A stretch of 64,000 nucleotides of DNA from an uncultured Eubacteriales bacterium (GCA_934486825.1 CAKSQF010000003.1:25771-89770); one strand, 5' to 3'. Counted from the stretch's first letter, positions 170-35,713 are shown. Translations and numbers: made by a program. Notes: generated from the letters alone by a model not told the origin.

Positions 170-565
170 TCAGCTTCGTGCTGCCGGGGCGGAGCGCGGA
201 TCGGCGGAGAAAATATCTCCTCTGCCGATAATGCGCCTGCGGATACGGTAAGCGGTGTCGCGGCTGACATCCATAGCCTCGGCGGTCGCTTCCATCGTAA
301 GACCCTGCCGGTAGCGCAGCTTCAGATACAGACGCTCCTGCGCCCTTCGTCCGGCTTCCTTCGGACAGGAGGCACAGGTGACGTAATCGTCAAGAAAAGC
401 CTCGGCTGAGAGAACAGACGATTTGAGTGAGCTTGCGGCTGATCGCAGGGAATCAAGACGATTACTTTCCTTGCCGTAATGCTCAAGTCTGCCGATTTCC
501 GCTTCTATTGAAGCAAGCAGCATCCGGTCGGAGCTGTATTTTTCAAAATAGTTGATCCAATTCAA
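170..565 (-). CDS. sigma-70 region-4-like transcriptional regulator of the phage/ICE type (DUF1492-like)
   Basis: The C-terminal segment ERLYLKLRYRQGLTMEATAEAMDVSRDTAYRIRRRII reads as a sigma-70 region 4 HTH. The start is TTG, 7 nt after AAGGAAG. The ORF is 131 aa. Confidence 0.5.
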   Translation of the reverse strand: MNWINYFEKYSSDRMLLASIEAEIGRLEHYGKESNRLDSLRSAASSLKSSVLSAEAFLDDYVTCASCPKEAGRRAQERLYLKLRYRQGLTMEATAEAMDVSRDTAYRIRRRIIGRGDIFSADPRSAPAARS

Positions 566-1529: not shown

Positions 1530-4500
1530 ATGAAACTGACAAAGAAGACAAGACTGCTTGCCGGATTTCTTGCGGCTCTTCTGATTGTGGGACCGGGAAC
1601 GGTTGCCGCATCGGCTGACGAAAACCGCAGCAGGTCTAATGCTTCTTCGGGTGGCAGCTACGAAACGCCGTCGCTTACCGAGCTTCTCAACACAATCAAG
1701 TATTCGGAGTACAGGGCTAAATACGTTGACATTGCACCCGGTTCTGAGTCCGCCGTACTTGCGGGTGATTCTATCGTTTCGTTTACCGAAAAGATCACGA
1801 ATGCGCCGGGTACAAAGGAAGTTGTTCTCGAAAACGGGACAAAGCTGCTTTATCTGCCTTCCGACGGCGTCGTCGGCTGGACGCTTGATATGCCGTCCGC
1901 GGGCATGTACAACATTGTTATAACCTATTATCCCGTTGAGGATATCGATGCCTCGACCGGTAAGACCGATTCGAAGACGACATCGATCGAAAGAACTCTT
2001 TTTGTCAACGAAAAGGTTCCTTTCTACGAAGCGCGTTTTCTTACCATGACAAAATCATGGGAGGATATTGATTCGACCCTGCAGAAGGATGCCGACGGCA
2101 ATCAGATTTACAAAATCGTCGATGCTTCGGGCAAGGTTAAATACCCCTATGTGGATATAAACGGCAACTGCCTTGAACGCGATCTTTCGTCCGGAAAGCT
2201 TGCTTTTGCCAAGACCGGCGATGCCCTTGATGTTGACAAGCTTATATCCGAGGGATATCAGAAGTATCCCGCATATCAGAACGATATCAACGGCAACGAA
2301 ATAAAGTCGGAAAAGCAGCTTGTGCTTTCCTCGACGAAGACCTATTTCAACGAAACGCTCGGAATCAACACGCGCATCGGAGAAAGAAAAACATATACCG
2401 CATGCGATTCGACCGGTTACTTCACCGAGCCGCTTGAGTTCTACTTTGACAAGGGTGAAAACACAATACAGCTTCAGGCACAGCGCGAATCGATGGCTAT
2501 CGAATCGATCAGCATTGTTCCTGTAGAAAAGAAGATGTCCTACACGGATTATCTGAAGCTTCACGAGGATGCCCGGGACTATTCGGGAAGCGCCGTGAAG
2601 ATTCAGGCGGAATATCCGCTTGCAACTTCGGAAAACACGGTTTACCCGACGAATGACAGAACCTCCTACATAACCGAACCGCAGGACGCGTCGCAGCTGC
2701 TTCTCAATGCGATCGGCGGCGACGGCGGTGAAAAGTGGAAGAACATCGGTCAGTGGGTGCGCTGGAACATCGAGGTTCCCGAGACCGGCTGGTATCAGAT
2801 CACGCTTCGCTTCAAGCAGAGCGTGCTTGAAGGAACCTTCTCGTCGAGAACTCTCCGCGTAGCTACCGCGAGCATGCTTGCCGAAGGTAAGCTGCCCGAG
2901 ATTCCGTTTGAGGAAGCTTATTATCTGCAGTTCAACTACAGAGACGACTGGCAGACCGCGGCACTCAACGACGGTAGCACGACCTTCAAGATCTACCTTG
3001 AAAAGGGCGTCAATCAGATAGAGCTTGAGTCGTCGCTCGGCAACATGGCAGAGATACTCCGCCGTGTAAATGCGTCGATGACGACGGTCAATGCGATCTA
3101 TATCAAAATACTGATGATTACCGGTTCGGAACCGGACTCAAACCGTGACTACGGATTTTACCGCATAATGCCGGATGATGTTGACGAGCTTCTCCGTCAG
3201 GCGAGAGAGCTTGAATCGATCTCCGAGGCATTCAGCAAGGTGACCAAATCGACAGGTTCGCATGCAAAGACCCTTGACAAGGTCGCGATGCTCCTTGAGC
3301 GTATGGGCTCGGACGAGAGCAAGATCGCCGGCAACCTTGACAACCTGAAGGAAAACCTCGGTACGCTCGGAACATGGCTTCAGACCTCGACCGAGCAGCC
3401 CCTTGAGATCGACTACATAATAGCCGAAGCTCCCGGAACCGATGTTGGTAAAACCCACAAAGCAAACGACTCCTTCTTACAGGCGTTCTGGTTTGAGATG
3501 ATCCAGTTCGCACGTTCGTTTGTATCCGATTACAACACTCTCGGATCCATGGAGGTTGTAAGCGAAGGAAACACCGTTGAGGTCTGGACAACGCTCGGAC
3601 GCGACCAGGCTCAGATAATCCGAAATCTTATAAATACCGATTTCAATAAGACTCACCCCGGAATTTCGGTTGAGCTTAAGCTTGTCGCCGGGGGCTCGTT
3701 GCTTCCGTCGGTTCTCGCGGGCGTCGGACCCGATGTTTCAATGGGTCACGGCTCGGGTGATGTAATCAACTGGGCAATACGTTCGGCGGTCGTTCCGCTT
3801 AACGATATGGAAGGAATTGAAGAAGTCGTCGGAAAGTTTGACGAAAAAGAGGGTTATCTCGGCGGACACTTTACCGAGAGCGGTGATTTCGTTGACGGAT
3901 ATTTCACGCAGGCGGCAATTATTCCGCTTGAACTGTTCGGCGAATTCGATCCGGACGGTGACGGCAAGGATTTTGAAACAAACGTGACTCTTTACGGACT
4001 TCCCGAAACCCAGTCCTTCTCGATGATGTTCTATCGTGCCGATGTCTTCCAGAACCTCGGCATCAATCCTCCGAAAACATGGGACGAACTTGTTGCGGCT
4101 CTTCCGATTCTCCAGAACAACCACATGGAAATCGCGATGCCCAACTCGCTCGGAGGACTCAACCTGTTCAACTATCAGATGGGCGGAGACCTTTATGCCG
4201 ACAACGGAAAAAGAATAGGTCTTGATACAGACGTCGCTCTTACCGCGTTCGACTACATGTGCTCCTTCTTCTCAAAATATAAATGTCCTTATACCTACAA
4301 CTTCGCCACCAGATTCAGAACCGGCGAGATTCCGATGGGTATCATGGATTACACGACTTACACACAGCTTTCGGTATATGCAACCGAGATCAGAGGTCTG
4401 TGGGAGTTCGTTGCTCTTCCCGGTGTTGTTCAGTACGATGACGCAGGCAATGTTACCGGCGTTAACAACACATCGGTCTCCGGAGTGTCCGCACTCATCA

Positions 4501-4931
4501 TGCTTCATGATGACAAGCGCACGGAGGAGCAGACCGCTCACGCATGGGAATACATGAAATGGTATGTCGGAGCCGAAAACCAGTCGTCTTACGCAAATGA
4601 GCTGACAGCACTTCTCGGCACCGTTTCAAAGCACAATACTGCGAATGTTGAGGCGCTGTCCTCTCTGTCATGGACTACCAGCGAATACAAGAACCTTATG
4701 AGCCAGTTCAACAATCTTTCGGCTGTCCGCGAGTATCCCGGCGGATATATAATCGGACGTTATGTTTCGTTCGCCTTCCTCGCTGTTTACAATAACAACG
4801 CGGTACCGACCGAATCGATACTTGATTATATAGTCGAGATAAACAAGGAAATCAGCAGAAAACGTAAGGAATTCAACATGACCTATTATGAGATAACTCA
4901 GAACAGCAGTTTTGTTGAAGAAGCGGGTTAG
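1530..4931 (+). CDS. extracellular solute-binding protein (CUT1-like sugar ABC SBP) with a roughly 600-aa N-terminal extension
   Basis: AGGAGG (1514-1519) precedes ATG 1530. The signal peptide is MKLTKKTRLLAGFLAALLIVGPGTVAASA. The C-terminal 500-odd aa look like a family-1 SBP (VEVWTTLGRDQAQIIRNLINTDFNKTHPGISVELKLV..., GLPETQSFSMMFYRADVF). The gene sits directly upstream of permease genes. Confidence 0.8.
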   Translation: MKLTKKTRLLAGFLAALLIVGPGTVAASADENRSRSNASSGGSYETPSLTELLNTIKYSEYRAKYVDIAPGSESAVLAGDSIVSFTEKITNAPGTKEVVLENGTKLLYLPSDGVVGWTLDMPSAGMYNIVITYYPVEDIDASTGKTDSKTTSIERTLFVNEKVPFYEARFLTMTKSWEDIDSTLQKDADGNQIYKIVDASGKVKYPYVDINGNCLERDLSSGKLAFAKTGDALDVDKLISEGYQKYPAYQNDINGNEIKSEKQLVLSSTKTYFNETLGINTRIGERKTYTACDSTGYFTEPLEFYFDKGENTIQLQAQRESMAIESISIVPVEKKMSYTDYLKLHEDARDYSGSAVKIQAEYPLATSENTVYPTNDRTSYITEPQDASQLLLNAIGGDGGEKWKNIGQWVRWNIEVPETGWYQITLRFKQSVLEGTFSSRTLRVATASMLAEGKLPEIPFEEAYYLQFNYRDDWQTAALNDGSTTFKIYLEKGVNQIELESSLGNMAEILRRVNASMTTVNAIYIKILMITGSEPDSNRDYGFYRIMPDDVDELLRQARELESISEAFSKVTKSTGSHAKTLDKVAMLLERMGSDESKIAGNLDNLKENLGTLGTWLQTSTEQPLEIDYIIAEAPGTDVGKTHKANDSFLQAFWFEMIQFARSFVSDYNTLGSMEVVSEGNTVEVWTTLGRDQAQIIRNLINTDFNKTHPGISVELKLVAGGSLLPSVLAGVGPDVSMGHGSGDVINWAIRSAVVPLNDMEGIEEVVGKFDEKEGYLGGHFTESGDFVDGYFTQAAIIPLELFGEFDPDGDGKDFETNVTLYGLPETQSFSMMFYRADVFQNLGINPPKTWDELVAALPILQNNHMEIAMPNSLGGLNLFNYQMGGDLYADNGKRIGLDTDVALTAFDYMCSFFSKYKCPYTYNFATRFRTGEIPMGIMDYTTYTQLSVYATEIRGLWEFVALPGVVQYDDAGNVTGVNNTSVSGVSALIMLHDDKRTEEQTAHAWEYMKWYVGAENQSSYANELTALLGTVSKHNTANVEALSSLSWTTSEYKNLMSQFNNLSAVREYPGGYIIGRYVSFAFLAVYNNNAVPTESILDYIVEINKEISRKRKEFNMTYYEITQNSSFVEEAG

Positions 4932-4983
4932 TCCTGTAAAACAATGAAAAATACGAAATTTCAGAATAAGGAGAGGATTGCAG

Positions 4984-5952
4984 GTGTCAGCTAAAACGGC
5001 TAACAATACTCAGGACGTGCAGGTAAAAAAGCCCGTCGCGAGAAAAGATATGACCAAAATGCAGTGGACACTCAAGGAAATGAGACGCAACTGGTTTGCA
5101 TACATAATGCTTGCCCCGTACTATCTTATCTTCCTGACATTCACCATCATTCCCGTCGTTGTATCGCTTGTCCTGAGCTTTACATCATTCAATATGTTGG
5201 AGCCTCCGACATTTATATTCATGCAGAATTACATCAGACTCTTTCTTGACGATGATATCTTCATTCTTGCATGTCAGAACACGCTTATATTTGCGGCGAT
5301 CACGGGTCCCGTATCATATTTGCTTTCATTCCTCGTTGCATGGTTCATCAACGAGCTTTCGCCGAAGATCAGAGCGATCGTTACTCTGATCTTCTATGCG
5401 CCGAACATTGCCGGATCGGTATACATGATCTGGTCGGTGGCATTCTCGTCCGACTCGTACGGATATGTCAACGGTCTGCTTCTTTATCTCGATCTTATCG
5501 ACAAGCCGATAGCTTTCTTCCAGGATGCCGATTACGTCATGCCGCTTTGTATAGTGGTTGCACTCTGGACGTCGCTCGGCACGGCGTTCCTGTCATTCAT
5601 TGCGGGTCTTCAGGTTGTTGACCGTTCGCTTTACGAAGCGGCAGCGGTTGACGGTGTCAAGAACCGCTGGCAGGAGCTTTGGTATGTCACACTGCCGTAC
5701 ATGAAGCCTCAGCTCATGTTCGGTGCGATACTTGCAATAACCGGATCATTCGGTTTCGGCGGTATCGTTGACGCACTTGCCGGTAACCCGTCGGTCGATT
5801 ACTGTGCATGGACGATAACCCATCACCTGAACGACTACGGCGGCGCAAGGTATGAGATCGGTTATGCGTCTGCGATCGCAACGGTGCTCTTTATCATAAT
5901 GATAGGTGCAAACGCGGCGGTCAAGAAAATTCTATCGAAAGTGGGGCAGTAA
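4984..5952 (+). CDS. sugar ABC transporter permease (MalF-type, pair 1)
   Basis: Multi-TM protein with the EAA loop AGLQVVDRSLYEAAAVDGVKNRWQELWYVTLPYMKP. GTG 4984 lies 7 nt after GGAGAGG; the ORF track opens at TTG 4978. Confidence 0.85.
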   Translation: MSAKTANNTQDVQVKKPVARKDMTKMQWTLKEMRRNWFAYIMLAPYYLIFLTFTIIPVVVSLVLSFTSFNMLEPPTFIFMQNYIRLFLDDDIFILACQNTLIFAAITGPVSYLLSFLVAWFINELSPKIRAIVTLIFYAPNIAGSVYMIWSVAFSSDSYGYVNGLLLYLDLIDKPIAFFQDADYVMPLCIVVALWTSLGTAFLSFIAGLQVVDRSLYEAAAVDGVKNRWQELWYVTLPYMKPQLMFGAILAITGSFGFGGIVDALAGNPSVDYCAWTITHHLNDYGGARYEIGYASAIATVLFIIMIGANAAVKKILSKVGQ

Positions 5953-5954
5953 CG

Positions 5955-6836
5955 ATGGCAAGAGTATCGAAATTAAGAACAAGAAAACATACCGTCGTTC
6001 TGAACCGTTCAAAGGGTGGAGACGCCGGAATCGCTTTCTTCCTTATAATTATGGGCGCATTCATGTTCCTGCCCATGCTTTATACGATCATGCAGTCGCT
6101 CAAGCCGCTTGACGAGCTTTGGGTTTTCCCTCCGAAATTCTATGTTACGTCACCGACGCTCAAGAATTTCAAGGACCTGTTCAAGCTGATGAATCAGAAC
6201 TGGGTGCCTTTTTCCAGATACCTCTTCAACACGATTCTTATATCGGTCGGAGGAACCTTCGGTAACCTGTTCCTTTCATCAATGGCGGCATACGTCCTGT
6301 CAAAGATCAAGTTCCCGGGCAGGGACGGACTGTTCCAGCTTATCGTTCTTTCGCTGATGTTCCATCAGACGGTCGGTGCGATAGCGAACTTCATTATAAT
6401 GTCGAGACTTCATTGGGTCGATACGCTCTGGGCGATAATCATACCCGCATGGGGATCGACGCTCGGACTATATCTTATGAAACAGTTCATGGAGTCGTCG
6501 GTTTCGGACGCGGTTCTTGAATCCGCGCGCCTTGACGGTGCAAGCGAACTTCGTACCTTCTGGACGATAGCGATGCCGATGGTCAAACCGGCATGGCTGA
6601 CGCTTATAGTTTACTCCTTCAAAGATCTGTGGAACACTGGCTCCACGATCTATGTTTACTCCGAACAGCTCAAGACCTTCAGCTATGCGATAGGACAGAT
6701 CCTGTCGGGCGGTATCGTGCGTTCGGGTGCGGGAGCAGCCTCAACCGTCGTTATGATGATCGTGCCGATTGCGGTGTTTGTCATATCGCAGTCGAACATT
6801 ATCGAGACGATGGCATCGTCCGGTATGAAGGATTAA
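5955..6836 (+). CDS. carbohydrate ABC transporter permease (MalG-type, pair 1)
   Basis: EAA loop ESARLDGASELRTFWTIAMPMVKPAW, six predicted TM segments, and a 3-nt gap to the upstream permease. Confidence 0.85.
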   Translation: MARVSKLRTRKHTVVLNRSKGGDAGIAFFLIIMGAFMFLPMLYTIMQSLKPLDELWVFPPKFYVTSPTLKNFKDLFKLMNQNWVPFSRYLFNTILISVGGTFGNLFLSSMAAYVLSKIKFPGRDGLFQLIVLSLMFHQTVGAIANFIIMSRLHWVDTLWAIIIPAWGSTLGLYLMKQFMESSVSDAVLESARLDGASELRTFWTIAMPMVKPAWLTLIVYSFKDLWNTGSTIYVYSEQLKTFSYAIGQILSGGIVRSGAGAASTVVMMIVPIAVFVISQSNIIETMASSGMKD

Positions 6837-6844
6837 GGGGGTAT

Positions 6845-9022
6845 ATGATGAAGAGATTTACAAAAACATTTGCTGTTTTTTGCGCAATACTGATGATTGC
6901 TCTCGGCAGTGTATCTTCGTTTGCCGCTTCATACAGCACATATACCTATTCGATCGACGGCGAACAGCTGCCGTCACCGGATGCCTACACTCCCGAAAAG
7001 GTTGTCGATTCAAAGAAGATCGGTCTTGAAAAGGCGCTCAATGCGCCGACGGCGATCGAGGTCGATAATGACGGCAATGTTTATATTGCCGACCCCAACA
7101 ACAACAGAATCGTTGTTCTCAACAGGTATTATGCATACAAGTATGAAATAAGCACCTTTGTCAACAGCGACGGTGTTGCGGACTCGCTCAGCGGGGCAGA
7201 GGGACTTTTCATATGGGAAGGCTATACGATCGAGAATGAGGAATACACAAAAGAAAAGCTCATTTACGTAGCCGATACACTGAACCGCAGAATTGTGGTG
7301 TTTGATGCCGAAGGCAATTACGTGCGCACGATAAGAGAGCCTGCCGGAGAGGTTATCAACGCAAGCGAAATCTACAGACCGGTAGCTCTTGCGGTTGACT
7401 CTTCGGGAAGAATATATGTCGTTTCGTCAATGACATATCAGGGAATCATCTCACTTACGAACGAAGGTGAATTTGCCGGATACATAGGAGCTCAGAAGGT
7501 TACCTACAACGCACTCCAGCTCATCTGGAGAAAATTCCAGAGTGCCGAGCAGCTGGCAAAGCAGGATAAGAACATTTCGACCGAATACAACAACATCGCA
7601 ATAGACGATGAGGGCTTTGTTTACGTAACGAACGGTGCGATCGAGGAATCGACGCTTTCAAGTGCGATCCGCTCGGGCAACAAGAATTATGCTCCGGTAA
7701 AGAAGCTCAATACATCGGGAACCGACATAATGAGAAGAAACGGTTTCTTCATGCCCGCAGGTGAGATAACATTCAGATCCTATGCCCGCGCATCCGAAGG
7801 AAACACCGTTCCTTACGGTCCGTCGCACATCGTTGACGTGGCACTCGGACCGGCAAACACATGGTCGATAATCGATGATAAGAGATCAAAGATCTACACA
7901 TACGACGACAACGGCAATCTTCTGTTCGCATTCGGCGACATGGGTACCCAGATGGGTAACATGCAGAAGGTATGCTCAATCACCTATCAGGGTGAAAAAA
8001 TGATCGTGCTCGATAAGCAGACATCTTCCTTTACGATTTATTCGAGAACCGATTACGGCGATCTGCTTATAACAGCGATCGAAAACAACAACAAGCGTAT
8101 GTATTCGCGTGCGCTTGACGACTGGAACGAAATACTCAAGAGCAACAACAACTTCGATGCAGCGTACATAGGAATAGGAAAGGCATACTACCGTCTCGGA
8201 CAGTGGGAAACCGCAATGGACTATTTCGAGCGCGCATACGATACCAAAAATTACTCGGATGCATTCGGCAAATGGCGTAAGGAATGGGTAGAAAAGTACA
8301 TCTGGGTCATTCCGATTGTGGTAATTGTCTTCTGCGTTGCGGTTGCCGAATTCTTCAAGTTCGCAAACAGAGTAAACAGAAAAGCAACTGTTTCGGGCAA
8401 AAAGAAGACCTTCTGGGAAGAAGTGCTGTACGCATTCCACCTCATATTCCATCCGTTTGACGGATTCTGGGATCTGAAGCATGAAAAGCGAGGCTCTGTA
8501 CGCGCGGCATTCTTTATTCTTGCGCTTGCAGTCGCATCCTTTGCTTACCAGAGCATCGGACGTGCATACATTTTCAACCCGCGCGGCGGATATACAAGTA
8601 TAATCGGGCAGCTGTCCGGACTTCTTGTGCCGATAATCCTCGGTTCTACGGCAAACTGGTGTCTGACAACACTGTTTGACGGTGAAGGAAGCTTCAAGGA
8701 TATTTTTGTTGCGATCTGCTATTGTCTTACGCCGATAGTAATGTTTGTTCCGCTTGCAACACTTCTCACACATATTGTCACGAATTCGGAGGCTGGTTTT
8801 GTGAACCTTCTTCTCGGACTCTGCTATGTCTGGGTGGGAATGCTCTTGTTCTTCGGAACTATGGTTACACATGATTACTCTATGGGCAAGAACGTAATTA
8901 CCCTTTTGGGTACCGCGATATGTGCCTGCGTTATCATGTTCATCATGGTACTGTTCTCGAGTCTGCTCATGAAGATGGTATCCTTCGTTTCGCAGATTAT
9001 TACCGAAGTAACATACGGATAA
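6845..9022 (+). CDS. secreted NHL-repeat beta-propeller / TPR / Yip1-type multi-pass membrane fusion protein
   Basis: Signal peptide MMKRFTKTFAVFCAILMIALGSVSSFAASYS. NHL-like repeats include YIADPNNNRIVVLN, YVADTLNRRIVVFD, GRIYVVSS and GFVYVTNG. A TPR-like segment reads AAYIGIGKAYYRLGQWETAMDYFERAY. The C-terminal roughly 220 aa contain 5-6 TM helices typical of Yip1-domain proteins. Confidence 0.7.
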   Translation: MMKRFTKTFAVFCAILMIALGSVSSFAASYSTYTYSIDGEQLPSPDAYTPEKVVDSKKIGLEKALNAPTAIEVDNDGNVYIADPNNNRIVVLNRYYAYKYEISTFVNSDGVADSLSGAEGLFIWEGYTIENEEYTKEKLIYVADTLNRRIVVFDAEGNYVRTIREPAGEVINASEIYRPVALAVDSSGRIYVVSSMTYQGIISLTNEGEFAGYIGAQKVTYNALQLIWRKFQSAEQLAKQDKNISTEYNNIAIDDEGFVYVTNGAIEESTLSSAIRSGNKNYAPVKKLNTSGTDIMRRNGFFMPAGEITFRSYARASEGNTVPYGPSHIVDVALGPANTWSIIDDKRSKIYTYDDNGNLLFAFGDMGTQMGNMQKVCSITYQGEKMIVLDKQTSSFTIYSRTDYGDLLITAIENNNKRMYSRALDDWNEILKSNNNFDAAYIGIGKAYYRLGQWETAMDYFERAYDTKNYSDAFGKWRKEWVEKYIWVIPIVVIVFCVAVAEFFKFANRVNRKATVSGKKKTFWEEVLYAFHLIFHPFDGFWDLKHEKRGSVRAAFFILALAVASFAYQSIGRAYIFNPRGGYTSIIGQLSGLLVPIILGSTANWCLTTLFDGEGSFKDIFVAICYCLTPIVMFVPLATLLTHIVTNSEAGFVNLLLGLCYVWVGMLLFFGTMVTHDYSMGKNVITLLGTAICACVIMFIMVLFSSLLMKMVSFVSQIITEVTYG

Positions 9023-9043
9023 AAGGAAGGAGTACGGATATAA

Positions 9044-12000
9044 ATGAAAACAAGTAATTTCAGCTTCAATGCGAAAGTACTTTCACTGCTTCTTGTTATT
9101 CTGATGATCATGGGCACGCTGTCTTCGCTCTTTATCCTTCCTGTGTACGCACAGGAGGGTGACGGAACGGGGGGGACGACCGGCGGAGATAATACCGAGG
9201 TTGTCGATCCCGATGAGGAGGAAATCAAAAATCCCACCATCGAGGAAGCTATTGCCGCATATCTTACGAAAGAATACGAAACAAGGGAAGAAAAGCTTGC
9301 GGTTATGACCGAAAAGCTTACAAAAGGAGACTTCAAGTTCTTCTGCGACCCGTATACGGGGGAGATTGCCGTTCAGAATACGGTAACCGGTCAGATACTC
9401 TTCTCTAATCCCTATGACGTGGCAACAGTAAAAACAGAAACGGTCAAAGAGCGACTTCTTTCACAGGTTGTTGTGTCCTTCAAGGATCTTGCCAACAACG
9501 GACAGGTCCGTGAGCTCAACAGCTACAAGGATGCCGCCGCAAACGGTCAGGTGACCGTAAAGAATATCAAAAACGGTATCCGCGTGGAGTATACGCTCGG
9601 TAAGGAAGCTTCCAAGAAGCTTATGCCTTACTGGATCGAAGCATCAAGATTCGAAAAGATGATTCTTTCCAACATAACCGTTGAGTATGACCTCGGAAAG
9701 GCGATCTCGTATTATGACCGTAAGGACGTAAACGATTCGTCACTGCCCGCAGCGACGATCCGTGAGATCAACAATGCCTACGCCTGCACAAAATCAACAT
9801 ATCAGAAACTCAATGTCACACCGATGTACGACCGTACCGAGGTTGACGAAAACGGTGAAACGGTTTATGTTGCCGAATATACCGACCATACCGGTAAGCT
9901 TGTAAGCCACAGATACAAAATGTCCGACAAGCTGGTTATATACACGGTAGAGCCGAGTGTTACTCTTTCCGAGAAGATGTCCAACACAATGGAAGGCTAC
10001 ACAAAGATGTATGCCCCCGACTACAACTATGAGGAAAGAGACTACGATATTGAAATCACCGGATATGTCGGAGACGAAGCCGGAAATGCAACCTTCCGTC
10101 TTGCTCTTGAATATACGGTGGACGATACCGGATTCAGCGTCAGTCTTCCCGCAAACGGAATCCGTTATGACGCGGATAAATACCGCCTGAATTACATAAC
10201 GCTGCTGCCTTATCTCGGAGCATCCTCCGACGAGTATCCCGGATATACCTTTATGCCGGACGGCTCGGGTGCAATAATCAGAAATGAGGATATCACCGCA
10301 GACGGCAGATCGTATACGGTTTCCGGTAAGGTTTACGGACCCGATTACGCATATCACAAGCTTACCTATAACGGCAAGTCGGAAATAATCCGCATGCCCG
10401 TTTTCGGTAATATCGAAAGTCTTGCCGATCCGATCGAAGTCGGACGCAAGATTGTGCCCGCACTTGATATTTCCGGTAAGCCGGCATACAACCCGGTAAC
10501 CGGAGAGCCGATACCTCAGTACTGGCTGGTCGATGAAGAGGAAGTAACCACCGTTATCGACGAGTACGGCGATATCGTGAAATATGTGCTCAAGGATGAG
10601 CCTGACGTTGAAGTCGAGAGAGTAAAGACGCAGTCAAACGTAATCTATTACAGACTTGACGAAAACGGAAAACGTGTTTATCTTACAGAGCCGATCTACG
10701 AATACGAATATCATCCGCAGGGCTTCTTCGCAATAATCGAAGAGGGCGAGTCGCTTTGCGAGATCACATCGAACCACGGAGGTAATATAAGCCACAAGTA
10801 CAGTTCGATATATGCGTCGGTCTATCCGGAAAGCACAGACAGCTACAACCTTGCCGATTCGATATCTGTCGGACAGGATGCCGAATGGACTGTCGTTTCG
10901 GAGAGAAAATATACCGGTCTGTTCAAGATCCGCTATATAATGCTTTCTTCTGCCGAGGGCGCTCAGTATGAGGCAAGCTACATGGGAATGGCGAACGCAT
11001 ACAGAGATTATCTTGACAAGAACGGCGTTATCTCGCTTATCGATGATGCCGCAAAGGATATTCCGCTCTATATTGAGTCGTTCGGTATGATAAAGACCGA
11101 GGATGTCGTGATGACAATTCCGGTCATGGTTGATACACCCCTTACGACATTCGGCGATATACAGACAATGTATAAGACGCTTGCCGAGAAGGGAATCGGA
11201 AATATCAATTTCCGCCTGACCGGCTTCAATAAGGAGGGCACCGGTTACCAGTTTGCTCCGTCGGTTGTTAAATTTGAAAAGGTGCTCGGCGGAAACAAGG
11301 GTTACGGCGAACTTCTCAAGGATGCCGAGAACAACAACTACGGTGTTTTCCCCGAATTTGACTTTGCCAATGTTAACTCGTCGGCATGGTTTGACGGATT
11401 CAGCTTCAAGAATCAGACTGTACGTACGATAGATGACCGTTACTCATATAAACGTGAATATGATGCAACATATCAGAACTTCACGTATATGGGATCGGTT
11501 GCGGTGTCACCCTGTGCATTCAGCGATCTTTTTGCAAAATTTGCAAGAAAGATGGATAAGCTCGGTGTAAACGGAATATCGGTATCGACGCTCGGTTCCG
11601 ACCTGAATACCGATTTCGACGAGAAAGAGCCGTACAACCGCGAGGATGACAAGGCATTTACGGCAGAGCTTCTCGGAAATATGGCTGAAAAATACAAGAA
11701 CATAATGATCGACGGCGGAAATGCTTATACATGGAAATATGTAAAGCATATCCTGAATGTATCGCTTGACAGCTCGCGTTATCTGAGAGCAAGCCAGTCG
11801 ATACCGTTTATGGGTCTTGTTCTTCACGGATCGGTATACCTTGCAGGCAAGCCCACGAACATGCAGGGCAATGTAAGATACGAGATGCTGAAGATAATCG
11901 AAAACGGCGCATCGCCCTACTACACGCTCTCCTATCAGAACACGCAGGAGCTTAAGGAATACAGCAATCTGACAAAGTATTATTCGGTCGATTTCAACAT

Positions 12001-12532
12001 CTGGCTGAAGGATCTTGTCGAAACCTATAATGTTATCAATTCGGCTCTTTGCGATGTCCAGGAATCCCGTATAAAGAATCATACCTTTATAAGCGGTACG
12101 AGAGTGTTCGGCGAGAAGGACCGCGATCAGTACGAGGCAGAGCTTGCCGTGGTTCTTGCGAAATATCTTGAAATGTACAATGCAGACCTCATGAAGAAGA
12201 TAAAGGACAGCTACAGAAGCGGTCTTATCACACTTCCCGAAGGATATGACTTCAAGAAGAACGAAGAAGGTAAGATAATCCCGCCCGAGGGCTTTGATCT
12301 GGAGGCATTCGAAGAGGATTATATAACCTTTGAAAAATACAATAAAGAAACCGCAGCGACAAGTATTGACGATTACTCGATAGTATACGAAGAGTACGAC
12401 AACGGAATATCGTTTGTCCTCAATTTCAATGATTTCAACGTATCGGTTGAGATCGGCGGAAAGACCTATACCGTTTCGGCAACAGGTTTCGTAAAGATCG
12501 ATGCAAGCGGCAATGTCGTCGCAAGTAACTGA
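9044..12532 (+). CDS. large secreted or membrane-anchored protein, DUF5696-like; putative uncharacterised glycoside-hydrolase-like
   Basis: N-terminal hydrophobic anchor LSLLLVILMIMGTLSSLFILPVYA, then a Gly/acidic linker. The ORF is 1162 aa and operonic with sugar permeases. Segments such as GISVSTLGSDLNTDF and SIPFMGLVLHGSVYLAG resemble (beta/alpha)8 glycosidase strands. The DUF5696 assignment is from memory of similar annotated proteins and is not verified. Confidence 0.5.
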   Translation: MKTSNFSFNAKVLSLLLVILMIMGTLSSLFILPVYAQEGDGTGGTTGGDNTEVVDPDEEEIKNPTIEEAIAAYLTKEYETREEKLAVMTEKLTKGDFKFFCDPYTGEIAVQNTVTGQILFSNPYDVATVKTETVKERLLSQVVVSFKDLANNGQVRELNSYKDAAANGQVTVKNIKNGIRVEYTLGKEASKKLMPYWIEASRFEKMILSNITVEYDLGKAISYYDRKDVNDSSLPAATIREINNAYACTKSTYQKLNVTPMYDRTEVDENGETVYVAEYTDHTGKLVSHRYKMSDKLVIYTVEPSVTLSEKMSNTMEGYTKMYAPDYNYEERDYDIEITGYVGDEAGNATFRLALEYTVDDTGFSVSLPANGIRYDADKYRLNYITLLPYLGASSDEYPGYTFMPDGSGAIIRNEDITADGRSYTVSGKVYGPDYAYHKLTYNGKSEIIRMPVFGNIESLADPIEVGRKIVPALDISGKPAYNPVTGEPIPQYWLVDEEEVTTVIDEYGDIVKYVLKDEPDVEVERVKTQSNVIYYRLDENGKRVYLTEPIYEYEYHPQGFFAIIEEGESLCEITSNHGGNISHKYSSIYASVYPESTDSYNLADSISVGQDAEWTVVSERKYTGLFKIRYIMLSSAEGAQYEASYMGMANAYRDYLDKNGVISLIDDAAKDIPLYIESFGMIKTEDVVMTIPVMVDTPLTTFGDIQTMYKTLAEKGIGNINFRLTGFNKEGTGYQFAPSVVKFEKVLGGNKGYGELLKDAENNNYGVFPEFDFANVNSSAWFDGFSFKNQTVRTIDDRYSYKREYDATYQNFTYMGSVAVSPCAFSDLFAKFARKMDKLGVNGISVSTLGSDLNTDFDEKEPYNREDDKAFTAELLGNMAEKYKNIMIDGGNAYTWKYVKHILNVSLDSSRYLRASQSIPFMGLVLHGSVYLAGKPTNMQGNVRYEMLKIIENGASPYYTLSYQNTQELKEYSNLTKYYSVDFNIWLKDLVETYNVINSALCDVQESRIKNHTFISGTRVFGEKDRDQYEAELAVVLAKYLEMYNADLMKKIKDSYRSGLITLPEGYDFKKNEEGKIIPPEGFDLEAFEEDYITFEKYNKETAATSIDDYSIVYEEYDNGISFVLNFNDFNVSVEIGGKTYTVSATGFVKIDASGNVVASN

Positions 12533-12548: not shown

Positions 12549-13529
12549 ATGAATAACGCACAGGCGGCAGTTAAGCAAAAAGCGCCTCAAAAGACGAAAA
12601 AGCGCAAGATCGTTTCGCTTGATAAGAAGAAGGCGCGCGCAGGTTGGTTTTTTGTTGCACCCTTCCTTATCGGATTTGTGCTGATCTACATTCCGATAAT
12701 CTTCAACTCAATACAGTCAAGCTTCTTCTCGGTAAAGCAGGGTCAGATATCCGAATTTGTGGGATTTGATAACTATGCATACGTGCTCTTTACCAATCCC
12801 GACTTCGTAACGACCCTGACATCGGGAATACGTCAGCTCGTCATTGATATTCCCGCGATAGTAATATTTTCACTGTTCATGGCAGTGCTTCTGAACCAGA
12901 AAATGTTCGGCAGAGCGATATTCCGTGCGATCTTCTTCGTGCCGGTTATTCTGTCAACGGGACTTATTGCGGATATCGATGCTTCCAATGTTATGAACCA
13001 GTATATGAGCGGCACCGACAGTACCGATACGTCGGCGAACATCACAAATGCTTCATCGGCATCCGACATTATTTCAATGGCAGATGTGGCGTTCCTGTTC
13101 GAGAGCATGAAGATCGGTACCGGACTTGTAAAGTATGTCGTACAGCTTGTAAATGACGTGTACAACATAATAAACCGTTCGGGAGTTCAGATGCTGATAT
13201 TCCTTGCGGGACTTCAGTCAATCTCTCCGGCAATATACGAATCATGTTCGATCGACGGCGCGACCGCATGGGAAACCTTCTGGAAGATAACATTCCCGAT
13301 GATAAGCCCGATGATACTTGTCAACACGATATATACCGTAATTGACTCGTTTACATCGTCGGACAGTTCGGTCATGAAATTTATCCTGAATTTCTATTCG
13401 ACCGGCGGCGCACAGTCGCGCGTACAGGCAACCGCGATGGGTTGGATATACTTCCTGATCGTTATCGCGATTATCGCGGCGGTTTCGGGAATACTGTCGG
13501 CGTATATCTTCTACCAGAGAAGAGATTAA
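12549..13529 (+). CDS. sugar ABC transporter permease (MalF-type, pair 2)
   Basis: AGGAGG precedes ATG 12549. EAA loop AGLQSISPAIYESCSIDGATAWETFWKITFPM. There is an inserted Ser/Thr-rich extracytoplasmic loop. Confidence 0.85.
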   Translation: MNNAQAAVKQKAPQKTKKRKIVSLDKKKARAGWFFVAPFLIGFVLIYIPIIFNSIQSSFFSVKQGQISEFVGFDNYAYVLFTNPDFVTTLTSGIRQLVIDIPAIVIFSLFMAVLLNQKMFGRAIFRAIFFVPVILSTGLIADIDASNVMNQYMSGTDSTDTSANITNASSASDIISMADVAFLFESMKIGTGLVKYVVQLVNDVYNIINRSGVQMLIFLAGLQSISPAIYESCSIDGATAWETFWKITFPMISPMILVNTIYTVIDSFTSSDSSVMKFILNFYSTGGAQSRVQATAMGWIYFLIVIAIIAAVSGILSAYIFYQRRD

Positions 13530-13540
13530 GGAGGTCGGCT

Positions 13541-14566
13541 ATGAATGCACAGCAAACACAGACAAAGATAAAGAAGGAATCAAAGAACAAGATCCGCGTT
13601 GATTTTGACAGAACCTCACGTTGGACCCGCTTCAAGATCAAATATCTTTCGGCGAGCTTCCTCGGACAGGTGATCTTCAAACTCTTCAGACTTGTACTGC
13701 TTCTCGGAATATCCTATGTCATACTTTTCCCGTTTTTCTCCAAAATAGCGTCCTCTTTCATGAGTCCGAGTGACTTCGTTGACGTAACGGTCAAGTTGAT
13801 ACCGAAGAATCCGACGCTCAACACCTACAAGCAGATAATCAGAGAAAACAACTACTTTGAAGCACTCTTCAATACAGCGGTACTTTCTCTGCTCTGTGCC
13901 GTAATACAGACATTTATCTGCTGCATCATCGGCTACGGCTTCGGCAAATACCGTTTCAAGGGCAGTAAGCTGCTTTTCGCATGCGTCCTGCTTACGATGA
14001 TAGTTCCGCACAAGATACTTCAGTTCTCGCTCTTCAATGAGTTCAGATATTTTGACATATACGGAATAATCAAAGCCATAACCGGCAAGACAATCAAGCT
14101 CACCGGTACTTATTGGCCGCTTGCGATCCTTTCGTTTACCGGTCTTGCGTTCAAGAACGGTCTGTACATCTATATGATGAGACAGTTCTTCAGAGGCGTG
14201 CCGGACGAACTTGAGGAATCCGCATATATCGACGGATCGGGTGTGTTCAGAACGTTTATACAGATCATTATCCCGCTTTCGATCCCGATGATGATTACAA
14301 TATTCCTCTTCTCGTTCAGCTGGCAGTGGACAGATAACTTCTATACCACGTTGCTTATTCCGGGTACGGCAAAATCGATCAAGCTGCTCCCCTCGATTAT
14401 AGAGGTACCGAAAACGCTTGATACCAATTACGCCGGAGGAAACCTTTATACCTCGGCGATCAGAAACACCTGCGGACTTCTTATTATAGCTCCGCTGATT
14501 CTGATATATATGTTCTGCCAGAGATATCTTATACAGGGTATCGAACGCTCGGGTATTACCGGCTAA
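13541..14566 (+). CDS. carbohydrate ABC transporter permease (MalG-type, pair 2)
   Basis: AGGAGG precedes ATG 13541. EAA loop EESAYIDGSGVFRTFIQIIIPLSIPMM. Multi-TM protein. Confidence 0.85.
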   Translation: MNAQQTQTKIKKESKNKIRVDFDRTSRWTRFKIKYLSASFLGQVIFKLFRLVLLLGISYVILFPFFSKIASSFMSPSDFVDVTVKLIPKNPTLNTYKQIIRENNYFEALFNTAVLSLLCAVIQTFICCIIGYGFGKYRFKGSKLLFACVLLTMIVPHKILQFSLFNEFRYFDIYGIIKAITGKTIKLTGTYWPLAILSFTGLAFKNGLYIYMMRQFFRGVPDELEESAYIDGSGVFRTFIQIIIPLSIPMMITIFLFSFSWQWTDNFYTTLLIPGTAKSIKLLPSIIEVPKTLDTNYAGGNLYTSAIRNTCGLLIIAPLILIYMFCQRYLIQGIERSGITG

Positions 14567-17115: not shown

Positions 17116-17991
17116 TTATTTCCGGTTTTTTTCGCCGCCTTTTGATCTTCTTTTTCCGGTGCGTATGACCGCAAACACTATTATGAGACAGACAGCCGCA
17201 AATATAAGCGCATAAGGCAGATTTACGATGACAAAGACGGCAACCGAGGTTGCGTCCGAGGCAATCGTTGAAAAGGTTTGTTTCAGACCGTCTTTTACTC
17301 TCTCGCCGAAGCTTTTGTCGTTTGTGTCGCTGTATACACCGACCTCGCAGACATCCAGCGTGATTGTTGAATAATCGATTTTGTTGTCAAGCTCGCGGAG
17401 CTGTGACTTGTAGCTGTCAAGCTTGTAGATAACGTCGGTAAGCTGATTGCGGATTTCAAGGATCGCCGACGTATCCGTTGCTTCCGACAAAAGTTTTTCG
17501 AGAGCCGTTTTTTCGCTTTCAAGCGCACTTATCCTGCTTTGAGTGTCAACATGGTTCAGCGTAACGTCGTTCGAGTTTTCGGATTGCGAGATGATTCTGC
17601 AATCCGAATCGAGCAGCTTCAGAAATTCGTCGGTCCTGTCGGCGGGAATACGGCAAACAAAGCTTGCGCTTCTGGAAAAATATTCGGTAGAATATCCGTT
17701 GCCGTTGGACTTCCCGCTCTCTATATATCCGTCCAGCCGCACTGTTTCGGAGCGGATGCGGTCGCTGAGCAGATTAAAATTCTCGGTCTCGGCGCTTATC
17801 GAGATTGTACGGGTCATTTTTCTGTCCGCGCCGACTGTGACAGAATCGGTGCGGTCGGTATTGCGGTCGCTGCTTTCAAAGCCTTTTTCAGGGTCGGAAC
17901 CGTCGGGAGAGTATTTGCCGCCTGCACTGCCGCATGCGGTCATTGTAAGGGAGAGGACAAAAATCAGAACGAACAGACAGATTTTTTTCAT
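17116..17991 (-). CDS. DUF4349-family lipoprotein
   Basis: Lipobox LSLTMTACGS. Central region: ...SASFVCRIPADRTDEFLKLLDS...NDVTLNHVDTQSRISALESEKTALEKLL. C-terminal TM helix plus a basic tail. Confidence 0.6.
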   Translation of the reverse strand: MKKICLFVLIFVLSLTMTACGSAGGKYSPDGSDPEKGFESSDRNTDRTDSVTVGADRKMTRTISISAETENFNLLSDRIRSETVRLDGYIESGKSNGNGYSTEYFSRSASFVCRIPADRTDEFLKLLDSDCRIISQSENSNDVTLNHVDTQSRISALESEKTALEKLLSEATDTSAILEIRNQLTDVIYKLDSYKSQLRELDNKIDYSTITLDVCEVGVYSDTNDKSFGERVKDGLKQTFSTIASDATSVAVFVIVNLPYALIFAAVCLIIVFAVIRTGKRRSKGGEKNRK

Positions 17992-18564: not shown

Positions 18565-20502
18565 ATGTTGAAAACCGATAATCTCGCGCTTTATCTGTTC
18601 CATCAGGGAACAAATTATCATGCACATGACTATATGGGCGTTCACAGGGCGGATCACGGCTACTGCTTCAGAACATGGGCGCCGTCGGCGGAACGCGTTC
18701 TTCTGGTCGGCGATTTCAACGGCTGGCAGGGACAACCCATGACCAGGATATCCGACATGGGCGTCTGGGAGATAACGGTTGATGCCGATGACCTTGAGGG
18801 GCAGAAATACAAATATGTTGTATGCTCCGCATCAGGCGAGCATTACAAGGCGGATCCGTACGCCGCATACGGCGAAACGCTCAAGGCAACCGCGTCGATC
18901 GTTTATACAAACGAAAAATACAAATGGACAGACGCGCGCTGGCTTACAAAGCGGCGCATGATTGCTGCGGGTGACGAGTTCTATGCCGCTCCCATGAATA
19001 TTTACGAAATGCATCTCGGTTCGTGGCGCACGCGCGACGGCAAGACGACAAAGGACGGCGAAAACTATCTGAACTATCGTGAGATTGCCGATCAGCTTGT
19101 GCCTTATGTCAAAAAAATGGGATATACGCATGTCGAGCTGATGCCGATAGGAGAGTACCCGTTTGACGGTTCGTGGGGATATCAGGTCTGCTCCTACTTT
19201 GCGCCGACCGCGCGTTTCGGGACGCCGGAGGATTTCAGATATTTCGTGAACACTCTTCATACAAACGGAATCGGCGTGATTCTCGATTGGGTTCCCGCAC
19301 ATTTTCCCAAAGACGAACACGGTCTTTGCAATTTTGACGGCGGTCCGCTTTACGAATATCAGGGTTGGGACCGTATGGAGCATACCGAGTGGGGAACACG
19401 ATGCTTTGATGTCGGCAGAAACGAGGTGGAGTGTTTCCTTATATCATCGGCGATGAGCTGGCTTGAACGGTATCATATCGACGGTCTGCGCGTCGATGCA
19501 GTGGCATCAATGCTCTATCTTGATTATGCGAGAAAGCCCGGCGAATGGGTGCCGAACATTTACGGTGAAAACAAGAACCTTGAAGCAATTGCCTTTTTCA
19601 AAAAGCTGAACACGGCGCTTTTTGCGGCGCATCCGGATATATTGATGATAGCCGAGGAATCGACGTCGTGGGCATCGATAACAAAGCCGGTTTCGGAAGG
19701 CGGGCTGGGCTTCAATTTCAAATGGAACATGGGCTGGGCGAACGATATGTACGATTATGTGCAGACCGACCCCTATTTCAGAAGATATCATCACAAGGAT
19801 CTGAACTTCTCGCTTTCGTATGCATTCAGCGAAAATTATATACTTCCGGTGTCGCACGACGAGGTCGTGCACGGCAAAAAGTCGCTCATAGACAAGATGT
19901 GGGGGACATATCATCAGAAATTCGCCGGAATGAGAATATTCGAAGTCTGGCAGATGACCCATCCCGGAAAAAAGCTCACCTTCATGGGATGCGAGTACGG
20001 GCAGTTCCGCGAATGGGATTACGAAAACCAGCTTGAATGGTTCATGCTGGATTTCGAAAAACACAGACAGCTTCACGACTTTACGGCAACGCTCAACAAC
20101 CTTTATCTCAAAAGGCGTGAGCTGTGGGAGCGGGATTTCTCATGGTCCGGCTTCGACTGGATCTACGCCGACCGCGACGCGGACAATCTTATAGCCTTCA
20201 GACGCATGGACAGAGCGGGGCATGAGCTGGTTGTTATTATAAATTTCTCGGCTGTCGGTTATAAAGGCTACGGCTTCCCGGTGAAGGGCAAGGCATACCG
20301 CGTCCTGCTTTCGACCGACGACGAGGAATTCGGCGGCAGCGGAATGAAATACCCCGGAATCATCGCCCGGAACGATATGGATATGATTACCCTCGACCTT
20401 GCACCTCTGTCGGCGGTAATTCTCGAACCGATAAACGAGCGTACCGTGCAGAAAAAGAAAAGGACAAAAAAACAGACGGCGCAGACAGACGGCAAACAGT
20501 GA
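18565..20502 (+). CDS. glgB: 1,4-alpha-glucan branching enzyme
   Basis: GH13 branching-enzyme motifs: IGVILDWVPAHF, GLRVDAVASMLY, IAEESTSW and HDEVVHGK. The ORF is 645 aa. Confidence 0.92.
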   Translation: MLKTDNLALYLFHQGTNYHAHDYMGVHRADHGYCFRTWAPSAERVLLVGDFNGWQGQPMTRISDMGVWEITVDADDLEGQKYKYVVCSASGEHYKADPYAAYGETLKATASIVYTNEKYKWTDARWLTKRRMIAAGDEFYAAPMNIYEMHLGSWRTRDGKTTKDGENYLNYREIADQLVPYVKKMGYTHVELMPIGEYPFDGSWGYQVCSYFAPTARFGTPEDFRYFVNTLHTNGIGVILDWVPAHFPKDEHGLCNFDGGPLYEYQGWDRMEHTEWGTRCFDVGRNEVECFLISSAMSWLERYHIDGLRVDAVASMLYLDYARKPGEWVPNIYGENKNLEAIAFFKKLNTALFAAHPDILMIAEESTSWASITKPVSEGGLGFNFKWNMGWANDMYDYVQTDPYFRRYHHKDLNFSLSYAFSENYILPVSHDEVVHGKKSLIDKMWGTYHQKFAGMRIFEVWQMTHPGKKLTFMGCEYGQFREWDYENQLEWFMLDFEKHRQLHDFTATLNNLYLKRRELWERDFSWSGFDWIYADRDADNLIAFRRMDRAGHELVVIINFSAVGYKGYGFPVKGKAYRVLLSTDDEEFGGSGMKYPGIIARNDMDMITLDLAPLSAVILEPINERTVQKKKRTKKQTAQTDGKQ

Positions 20503-20568
20503 AAACGAAGCTCATATAAAAGGCAGATATTTATATGCAGATATTTATATAAAGGAGACTATGGTAGT

Positions 20569-21777: not shown

Positions 21778-21790
21778 GGGAGGGAGAAAG

Positions 21791-22927: not shown

Positions 22928-22953
22928 ACAATTATTTGAAAGAAGGTAATTAT

Positions 22954-24378: not shown

Positions 24379-24432
24379 CGGCATTGCCGCAGGACGGTCG
24401 GGACAAACGAAAAATAAGTATTCCCGCAATAC

Positions 24433-24468
24433 AAGCAATGCCGCTTATGCGGCATTGCTTTGCTTGTT
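24433..24468 (+). terminator. rho-independent terminator or processing hairpin between glgA and glgP
   Basis: 12-bp stem AAGCAATGCCGC / GCGGCATTGCTT with loop TTAT, followed by TGCTTGTT. Confidence 0.65.
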
Positions 24469-24570
24469 GATACTGCTTAAGTACAAAAGGAAGATTGCTT
24501 TGGCGACATTCTGCATATAATAATAAAGAGCGGATGCATCGCGCAAAGACAAGTCGGAAAGGAATTGAAA

Positions 24571-27081: not shown

Positions 27082-27105
27082 TCGGAAGCTCAGGACGAGG
27101 TTTAT

Positions 27106-35559: not shown

Positions 35560-35713
35560 CGGCACGATTCCTTTCGTATACTGTTGTCCGTGGCAAACGG
35601 TACCTATATGTATTATAACATCCTGCCGTGCCGATGTCAACAGAGCATGCCGCGATAGTCAAAAAAGCCAAAAAATTTTTTCTGATATTTATCAAAATTG
35701 TGGCATAAGCCTA

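Follow-up and report, generated by a model that had tools for sequence, protein, structure and literature searches.

Glycosidases of family GH101 have an Asp/Glu catalytic pair. The catalytic domains of GH101 and GH129 are similar, and Ca2+ assists NagBb, a GH129 enzyme of Bifidobacterium bifidum, in recognizing its sugar (review PMC8106489). In a second GH129 enzyme, ZgGH129 (also called DagB) of Zobellia galactanivorans, mutation of Asp486 (the nucleophile) and of Glu517/Glu531 kills activity. Asp486 is the counterpart of NagBb Asp435, but the acid/base of ZgGH129 is not that reported for NagBb, and Asp202 from the N-terminal domain of the second monomer is required (PMC5698469). Here we describe a gene related to this group in a 64,000-nt stretch of DNA from an uncultured Eubacteriales bacterium (GCA_934486825.1 CAKSQF010000003.1:25771-89770), the whole of which is called the window. 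The gene (9044..12532, plus strand; 1162 codons plus stop) encodes a protein of family DUF5696. The reading that we favor, tentatively, is that this protein is a glycosidase-derived, glycan-handling subunit of a sugar importer and is non-hydrolytic.

Homology to GH129 and the canonical catalytic columns

The Pfam scan placed the 1162-aa protein in DUF5696 (PF18952; E 1.4e-131, 440.4 bits against a gathering cut-off of 25.6), with the match in two stretches, residues 345-456 and 550-1017. The family label, which an earlier sequence-only reading had suggested, was correct. The NCBIfam scan of the protein returned no family, Pfam scans of three pieces of it at E ≤ 10 returned no glycoside hydrolase (GH) family, and searches of PDB sequences with the single sequence and with the close-clade profile returned only noise. 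PF11308, the GH129 model, was absent from the Pfam matches of the whole protein and of its pieces, even at E ≤ 10; by family model, the protein is not a GH129 member. Literature searches for DUF5696 and PF18952 found no paper naming the family, large as it is, and a search on Yip1, solute-binding protein (SBP), GH, and ATP-binding cassette (ABC) yielded nothing useful. The protein had been said to belong to no characterized family, and this held for the Pfam GH129 model and for the literature. It had also been said to lack motifs of known GH families, which was borne out by the Pfam, NCBIfam, and single-sequence PDB searches but not by the profile and fold comparisons that follow.

An AlphaFold2 model built on a 41-sequence alignment had a mean predicted local distance difference test score (pLDDT) of 85.3 and a predicted template modeling score of 0.74, with low confidence only in the signal/anchor and linker. 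When the model was compared with the PDB by Foldseek, the best match was ZgGH129 (5opq, 8rzk; E 2e-25, target-normalized template modeling score [TM] 0.69). The alpha-N-acetylgalactosaminidase NagBb of family GH129 (5wzn; E 2e-19, target-normalized TM 0.72), GH101 enzymes (E approximately 1e-11 to 1e-12, TM 0.23-0.30), and GH31 and GH36 enzymes (E approximately 1e-8) were matched as well. The match spans whole GH129 chains, in which a (beta/alpha)8 barrel stands between an N-terminal and a C-terminal beta-sandwich, and the earlier guess of a glycosidase-type barrel is supported by the model and by these matches. An adhesin or S-layer fold was rejected, with no such structure among the Foldseek matches; the fold and Pfam checks thus gave neither this kind of fold nor membership in a characterized GH family.

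Profile-profile comparison with hhalign of 75 diverse DUF5696 proteins and 65 GH129 (PF11308) homologues gave 98.8% (E 7.9e-17, 564 columns), and a smaller comparison gave 81.5%. A profile of 20 diverse DUF5696 sequences matched the solved ZgGH129 (E 2e-9) and NagBb (E 9e-8) and was the only one in the PDB-sequence searches to reach GH129; a profile restricted to the barrel's second half found no GH129 structure and nothing relevant among PDB sequences. In addition, positions 542-612 of the DUF5696 profile match the C-terminal part of GH129 homologues above the cut-off (E 1e-6 to 1e-12). The hhalign result, the direct profile matches, and the shared C-terminal model positions show that the relation between DUF5696 and GH129 is one of homology, beyond shape alone. 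Judged from the predicted structure, the ectodomain descends from a GH129/GH101-type glycosidase. Many GH129 (PF11308) homologues from Clostridia, Verrucomicrobia, and Opitutales score above the cut-off of the DUF5696 model over its last 70 positions, and one GH129 homologue carries the name "DUF5696 domain-containing." The two Pfam families appear to overlap and to be related to each other.

The catalytic residues of NagBb, Asp435 (nucleophile) and Glu478 (acid/base), were placed by counting in alignments via a clostridial GH129 homologue (L020), in which they correspond to Asp393 and Glu435; ZgGH129 Glu517 sits in the same GTE motif as NagBb Glu478. In the hhalign alignments, the nucleophile column (NagBb Asp435, ZgGH129 Asp486) falls on Ser848 (codon 11585..11587, plus strand), and the acid/base Glu column (NagBb Glu478, GTE motif) falls on Asp890 (codon 11711..11713, plus strand). 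The beta4 region was aligned without gaps in both runs, with confidence digits of 8-9 around Ser848, and the spacing is equal in the two families (22 residues from Gly844 to Arg866 and 24 from Arg866 to Asp890). A hand alignment with a gap, in which Asp853 became the counterpart of the nucleophile, was dropped because the hhalign alignment is gapless and of high confidence, with identical spacing in both families. The match of ZgGH129 to the GH129 homologue query P0360 begins only at Arg493, and the beta4 region lies outside it.

All 65 GH129 homologues had Asp in the nucleophile column and Glu in the acid/base column (65/65 each). Among 121 close relatives of the 1162-aa protein, the nucleophile column contained Ser in 81, Gly in 21, Ala in 18, and Asp in 1 (S/G/A in 120/121). 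The Asp890 column, where alignment confidence is only 3-5, contained Asp in 105, Glu in 4, Ser in 8, and Asn in 4 (acidic in 109/121). This column was acidic in 29/75 diverse DUF5696 proteins and in 75/140 representatives at 50% identity. With an acid at either 848 or 849 taken as a nucleophile-column acid in these two wider sets, both canonical columns were acidic in 9/75 and 18/140 sequences, and neither was acidic in 28/75 and 31/140. Thus, these counts, together with the failure of the barrel second-half profile to detect GH129 structures, indicate that the canonical dyad is not a DUF5696 feature and that the nucleophile is absent from the 1162-aa protein.

The sequence-only reading had proposed a new glycoside hydrolase that cleaves the imported polymer. 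The fold, the DUF5696 assignment, and the lack of a characterized family agree with that proposal; hydrolysis itself is made less probable by the missing nucleophile at the Ser848 column, by the small number of members with both columns acidic, and by the presence of the same gene cassette beside very different carbohydrate-active enzymes (CAZymes).

The import cassette and the role of its DUF5696 protein

The gene order giant tethered SBP, permease, permease, NHL(/Yip1) protein, DUF5696, permease, permease was found in approximately 95 loci of Clostridia, Bacilli, and Treponema. The seven-gene order is present in the window and in L003, L010, L012-L014, and L109-L111; of the 84 loci L025-L108, nearly all have it. 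In L011, only the DUF5696-permease-permease part is visible because the contig ends just upstream of DUF5696, and the few exceptions to the gene order look like contig ends or spurious calls of opposite-strand open reading frames (ORFs). The carriers are Paenibacillus, Cohnella, Bacillus, Neobacillus, Mahella, Lachnospiraceae, Butyrivibrio, Anaerotaenia, Oscillospiraceae, and Treponema. A seven- or eight-gene cassette recurs across phyla, with GH27 and GH26 as neighbors in Treponema sp. J25 (L026), GH18 and CBM9 in Paenibacillus albus (L025), and GH2 in Neobacillus bataviensis (L027). Just outside cassettes of the L025-L027 type there is usually one more SBP, of ordinary size, which the window's clade lacks. 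The flanking enzymes vary by locus (GH38, GH30, GH27/GH36, GH5 with CBM46, GH20, GHL10, and GH106; further GH53, GH3, GH26, GH18, GH2, and a GH78-like protein), and an additional SBP of the ordinary kind is often present. The cassette with DUF5696 at its center adjoins enzymes for mannan, galactan, chitin, cellulose-type glucan, alpha-mannosides, and rhamnosides in gut, rumen, and soil bacteria.

This fixed place beside very different CAZymes is easier to reconcile with a generic role linked to the transporter than with a single glycosidase chemistry. GH129, GH101, GH31, and GH36 are all alpha-retaining families, and it is unlikely that a single family of this kind would act at loci for beta-mannan, beta-galactan, chitin, and cellulose-type glucan. 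We infer that DUF5696 is a generic transporter-linked, glycan-handling subunit and not a hydrolase of one chemistry.

The pattern of conservation was compared among the same 121, 75, and 140 sequences. The most conserved DUF5696 motif is the PDGSG hairpin turn (residues 405-409; 10256..10270, plus strand). Its Asp406 is kept in 120/121, 73/75, and 136/140 sequences and is DUF5696-specific, the matching loop being P-L-x-E-G in the consensus of the GH129 profile and P-M-N-G-G in ZgGH129. Between beta4 and alpha4 lies an acidic loop, D853-L-N-T-D857-F-D859 (11600..11620, plus strand), in which Asp857 is near-invariant in the family (121/121, 62/75, and 136/140) and Asp853 is kept in the window's clade only (116/121). 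Polar or aromatic residues at the C-terminal ends of beta4-beta7 (Arg866, Asn893, Tyr895, Ser911, Phe922, His928, and Asn939) are kept family-wide. Overall, the residues kept family-wide are mostly hydrogen-bonding or aromatic, and motifs of the N-domain are kept too. The canonical catalytic positions vary between subfamilies and are fixed within each, a pattern expected of specificity sites combined with a conserved partner interface.

According to the reading of a non-hydrolytic subunit, the gene would encode the DUF5696 component of a conserved sugar import cassette of the ABC type with seven genes and two translocons. The former active-site pocket would bind or position a glycan instead of cutting it, and the invariant PDGSG, YGxD, YSD-F...R, GN, SS, PF...HG, and N939 would contact two partners that are just as conserved, the permease pair encoded immediately downstream and the NHL/Yip1 protein encoded immediately upstream. 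DUF5696 would then act as a glycosidase-fold "heavy chain" of the transporter; we infer the physical association with the transporter from invariant gene adjacency only. A non-catalytic transporter subunit would introduce a new principle among bacterial ABC importers, and annotation should in that case not count DUF5696 as a hydrolase. A bolder extension, to which we give rather low credence, is that DUF5696 proteins are natural nucleophile-less GH129-type descendants that serve as obligatory extracellular subunits of an undescribed multi-subunit glycan import machine in monoderms and spirochaetes. Its parts would be the giant tethered SBP, the NHL-propeller/Yip1 membrane protein, DUF5696, and two ABC translocons, and, if real, it would be a functional counterpart of Sus-type capture-and-import in Bacteroidota and of the eukaryotic SLC3 "heavy chains."

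Several observations weigh against a non-hydrolytic role. The window's clade keeps Glu678 (121/121), Asp797 (120/121), Asp853 (116/121), and Asp857 (121/121), retains D/E at Asp890 (109/121) and at Asp909 (120/121), and also keeps Asp773; such dense carboxylates at the predicted catalytic face look like an active site. Asp406, Asp434 (133/140), Asp857, and Glu953 are kept in 95-99% of the 140 representatives, which leaves room for a relocated catalytic pair. ZgGH129 has its nucleophile only 7 residues ahead of the conserved Arg and 31 ahead of the acid/base Glu; with such spacing, Asp859 or Asp857 of the 1162-aa protein would come close to the nucleophile position. In the five loci examined of the long-form clade to which the window belongs, moreover, the cassette is on its own, and no glycoside hydrolase gene adjoins it.

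The same observations speak for an active extracellular glycoside hydrolase of a new GH129-related family with moved carboxylates, which would trim the surface-bound glycan to import size. In such an enzyme, for example, Asp857/Asp853 or Asp406 would be the nucleophile or base and Asp890 the acid/base. We consider this a serious alternative, if a doubtful one. It accords with the GH129/GH101 fold and homology, with an acid/base column that is acidic in 109/121 of the clade, with near-invariant Asp857, Asp406, and Asp434, with the ZgGH129-type placement of Asp859/Asp857, and with the fact that no other glycoside hydrolase adjoins the cassette in the window's clade. The difference in acid/base between ZgGH129 and NagBb and the requirement for Asp202 of a second monomer also indicate that the catalytic machinery of the superfamily is plastic. 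However, the nucleophile column is S/G/A at high alignment confidence, and conservation of Asp853, Asp890, and Asp909 is confined to the clade. The same cassette occurs at loci for alpha- and beta-linked, chemically unrelated glycans, for which one fixed stereochemistry is unlikely, and the pairs Asp857-Arg866 and Lys950-Glu953 (i/i+3 in a helix) could be mere structural salt bridges. If the protein is an enzyme after all, it would found a new GH family with relocated catalytic residues.

The DxNxDxD pattern at 853-859 suggests a possible metal site, and another chemistry on the GH129 scaffold (transglycosylase, phosphorylase, lyase, or esterase), possibly metal-dependent through this loop, was also weighed. 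The conserved acidic residues D853-x-N855-x-D857-x-D859, the Ca2+-assisted sugar recognition of NagBb (PMC8106489), and the retention of the acid/base-like Asp890 after loss of the nucleophile would all fit, but the DxNxDxD pattern is limited to the window's clade and extracellular phosphorylases are not expected. We also know of no precedent for any of these four chemistries in GH129 or GH101, and we regard such a function as improbable. Still less credible is the absence of any glycan role, with the protein helping to assemble the giant SBP or the NHL/Yip1 protein, or serving either as a structural spacer, and its fold a relic. The fixed gene order with partners of unassigned function and the loss of the canonical catalytic residues are consistent with it, but Arg866, Asn893, Tyr895, Ser911, Phe922, His928, and Asn939 are conserved where such barrels bind ligands, and positions that differ from one subfamily to the next are conserved within each, as is typical of specificity sites. 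The 1162-aa protein is a GH129/GH101-superfamily scaffold in a new, transporter-embedded role that is probably non-canonical.

Anatomy of the gene, its family, and its neighborhood

A strong ribosome-binding site, AAGGAAGGAG (9024..9033, plus strand; read directly), precedes the ATG of the DUF5696 gene by 10 nt. Residues 1-36 (9044..9151, plus strand) form an N-terminal export signal or type II membrane anchor, within which residues 12-34 are a 23-residue hydrophobic segment with a possible cleavage site, VYA/QE, at its end and no lipobox Cys. Residues 37-63 (9152..9232, plus strand) are a flexible Gly/acidic linker, EGDGTGGTTGGDNTEVVDPDEEE. In the AlphaFold2 model, residues 8-29 are helical and residues 30-63 are disordered, with pLDDT < 50 for residues 24-63. 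The hydrophobic segment and the linker are exactly as the earlier reading had quoted them, and the 1162-aa protein is predicted to be exported or membrane-held through this helix and linker. A signal/anchor segment is present in 113/120 close relatives and 111/119 canonical DUF5696 proteins versus 23/118 GH129 homologues; GH129 homologues with an intact dyad are mostly without an export signal or anchor.

An N-terminal extension follows (residues 64-345; 9233..10078, plus strand; from hhalign and DSSP), the Pfam match covering only residue 345 onward. Within it, residues 91-185 correspond in the alignment to the beginning of the GH129 N-domain, and residues 186-345 are an alpha/beta insert without a counterpart in the GH129 profile. 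The beta-sandwich N-domain (residues 346-640; 10079..10963, plus strand; Pfam and DSSP) corresponds to DUF5696 profile positions 21 to approximately 200. It contains an insert (residues 457-549; 10412-10690, plus strand) that splits the Pfam match, and this split recurs across the window's genus. A linker helix and the (beta/alpha)8 barrel, the homologue of the GH129 catalytic domain, occupy residues 641-1020 (10964..12103, plus strand; Foldseek, hhalign, and DSSP). Residues 1021-1105 (12104..12358, plus strand) contain a long helix (1024-1058) and a linker before the last domain, assigned by DSSP and without a GH129-profile counterpart. Residues 1106-1162 (12359..12529, plus strand) form C-terminal beta-sandwich strands common to GH129 proteins (DSSP; hhalign reaches residue 1156).

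The barrel strands assigned by DSSP are residues 675-680, 721-726, 767-771, 845-846, 887-890, 902-904, 932-934, and 959-961. Four strand-like motifs had been quoted as reminiscent of a (beta/alpha)8 glycosidase, and all were found in the predicted barrel. They are IESFGMIKTEDV (residues 677-688) on beta1 (strand 675-680), FRLTGFNKEG (residues 723-732) on beta2 (strand 721-726), GISVSTLGSDL (residues 844-854) on beta4 (strand 845-846), and PFMGLVLHGSVYLAG (residues 921-935) in the beta7 region (strand 932-934).

More than 2100 homologues of the 1162-aa protein were found, and at least 4158 clusters at 50% identity matched the DUF5696 profile at E ≤ 1e-30; the ORF is thus no product of chance. 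Among sampled genomes, the family was present in 48/61 of the window's genus, family, and order and in 32/401 of the phylum (approximately 8%). Canonical DUF5696 proteins are 720-950 aa long and match the whole Pfam model. The hallmark motifs GYxF(V/I)PDGSG, YGxD, YSD(F/Y), R866, GN, SS, PF...HG, N939, and E953 are near-invariant in the 75 and the 140 diverse members, and all are present in the 1162-aa protein; YSD(F/Y) reads N-(S/T)-D-F in the window's long-form clade. One genome of the same order (G038, approximately 1.8 Mb) has six DUF5696 paralogues of 720-850 aa, on contigs C33, C3, C43, C7, C32, and C21. The copy at L010 lies in a complete cassette, and the one at L011 is followed by the permease pair, with the contig end just upstream. 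This six-fold set resembles the multiplication of polysaccharide utilization loci.

All seven cassette genes of the window are on the plus strand. The first (1530..4931) encodes the giant tethered SBP, with an SBP fold from approximately residue 715 and a long N-terminal extension; homologues hold the same position in related loci. The second and third (4978-5952 and 5955-6836; together 4978..6836) are the first permease pair, recognized by BPD_transp_1 matches and synteny. The fourth (6845..9022) encodes an NHL propeller-TPR-Yip1 membrane protein and lies directly upstream of DUF5696 in nearly all loci. Its longest ORF opens at 6593, overlapping the preceding permease, and the likely true start is the methionine of MMKRFTK at 6845. 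The sixth and seventh (12549-13529 and 13541-14566; together 12549..14566) are the second permease pair, directly downstream of DUF5696 in nearly all loci. Their starts were re-set to ATGs, the first of which follows the ribosome-binding site AAAGGAGGGG. Both of these permeases begin with long, very basic cytoplasmic tails (e.g., MNNAQAAVKQKAPQKTKKRKIVSLDKKKARAG), and their counterpart in L014 has an N-terminal charged extension of approximately 150 aa. The DUF5696 gene is the sole enzyme-like gene of the operon, as the sequence-only reading had stated.

A small divergent HTH_23/Sigma70_r4 gene (131 aa; 170..565, minus strand) lies approximately 900 nt upstream of the cassette. A similar small HTH gene is found upstream in L003, L109, and L110 (four of five clade loci, the window included), and its product may be the clade's dedicated cassette regulator. 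The cassette is without an ATPase gene; an orphan ORF on another contig of the genome has a TOBE_2 domain, as is typical of MalK/MsmK-type ABC ATPases.

Farther downstream, a complete glycogen operon (18565-29025, plus strand; glgB, glgC, a glgD-like gene, glgA, glgP, and an alpha-amylase-family gene) follows metA/metY, and a DUF4349 protein is encoded between the met genes and the glg operon (17116-17991, minus strand). A 1113-aa protein of GH92, an alpha-mannosidase family, with an N-terminal extension of approximately 240 aa, is encoded approximately 20 kb from the cassette (32299-35640, minus strand). A link of the cassette to the glg operon or to the GH92 gene was rejected. Synteny with these genes was seen only in the closest relative examined (L109) and was absent in L003, L110, and L111.

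Comparison with described systems

The best fold match, over all three domains, was ZgGH129/DagB, an alpha-1,3-(3,6-anhydro)-D-galactosidase (5OPQ, 8RZG-8RZK). The DUF5696 profile matches it in the first strands of the N-domain, from the end of the N-domain through beta1, in the beta-hairpin after beta1, from beta2 to the LGG motif, and in the C-terminal sandwich. Both proteins are exported, DagB being periplasmic (PMC5698469). They differ in that, under the best alignment, Ser848 takes the place of Asp486 in the nucleophile column; the 1162-aa protein also has approximately 500 extra residues, and sequence identity is approximately 9-10%. The carrageenan locus of DagB likewise encodes cytoplasmic-membrane transporters (PMC5698469), but not the ABC cassette in which the 1162-aa protein is encoded.

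NagBb (5WZN/5WZP/5WZR; PF11308) shares the fold, profile-profile homology, and an identical beta4/beta5 spacing with the DUF5696 protein. Motifs common to DUF5696 and NagBb-type GH129 proteins are (T/N)R where alpha4 begins, G-x-(E/D)-G-(G)-N at beta5, DS(G/S)R, and VP(L/F)xxLV(Y/L)H. In the alignment, Asp435 falls on Ser848 and, at low confidence, Glu478 on Asp890, and an acidic loop stands in place of the Cys/His-rich loop after the nucleophile. The clostridial GH129 homologues differ further in being mostly without an export signal. The GH101 endo-alpha-N-acetylgalactosaminidases (SpGH101, 3ECQ/5A59; EngBF, 2ZXQ) were second-tier fold matches with the much lower TM of 0.23-0.30; they are large multi-domain surface proteins of Gram-positive bacteria with the same barrel type.

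The cassette itself is closest to the CUT1-family (TC 3.A.1.1) importers of Gram-positive polysaccharide utilization loci, which likewise consist of SBP_bac_1 and BPD_transp_1 components. As in CUT1 systems, the cassette has no ATPase of its own, a TOBE_2 ORF lies elsewhere in the genome, and CAZymes flank the cassette in other taxa. Ordinary CUT1 systems, in contrast, have one SBP and one permease pair and are without DUF5696, the NHL/Yip1 protein, and a binding protein of approximately 1000 aa.

The SLC3 heavy chains 4F2hc/CD98hc and rBAT, subunits of eukaryotic heteromeric amino-acid transporters, have a single N-terminal anchor and an ectodomain of GH13 fold; 4F2hc has lost its catalytic residues and is an obligatory membrane-transporter subunit. 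Although the glycosidase family and the transporter class are unrelated to those considered here, the DUF5696 protein would resemble these chains, as a working analogy only, in its single anchor, its glycosidase-fold ectodomain, and its role in transport.

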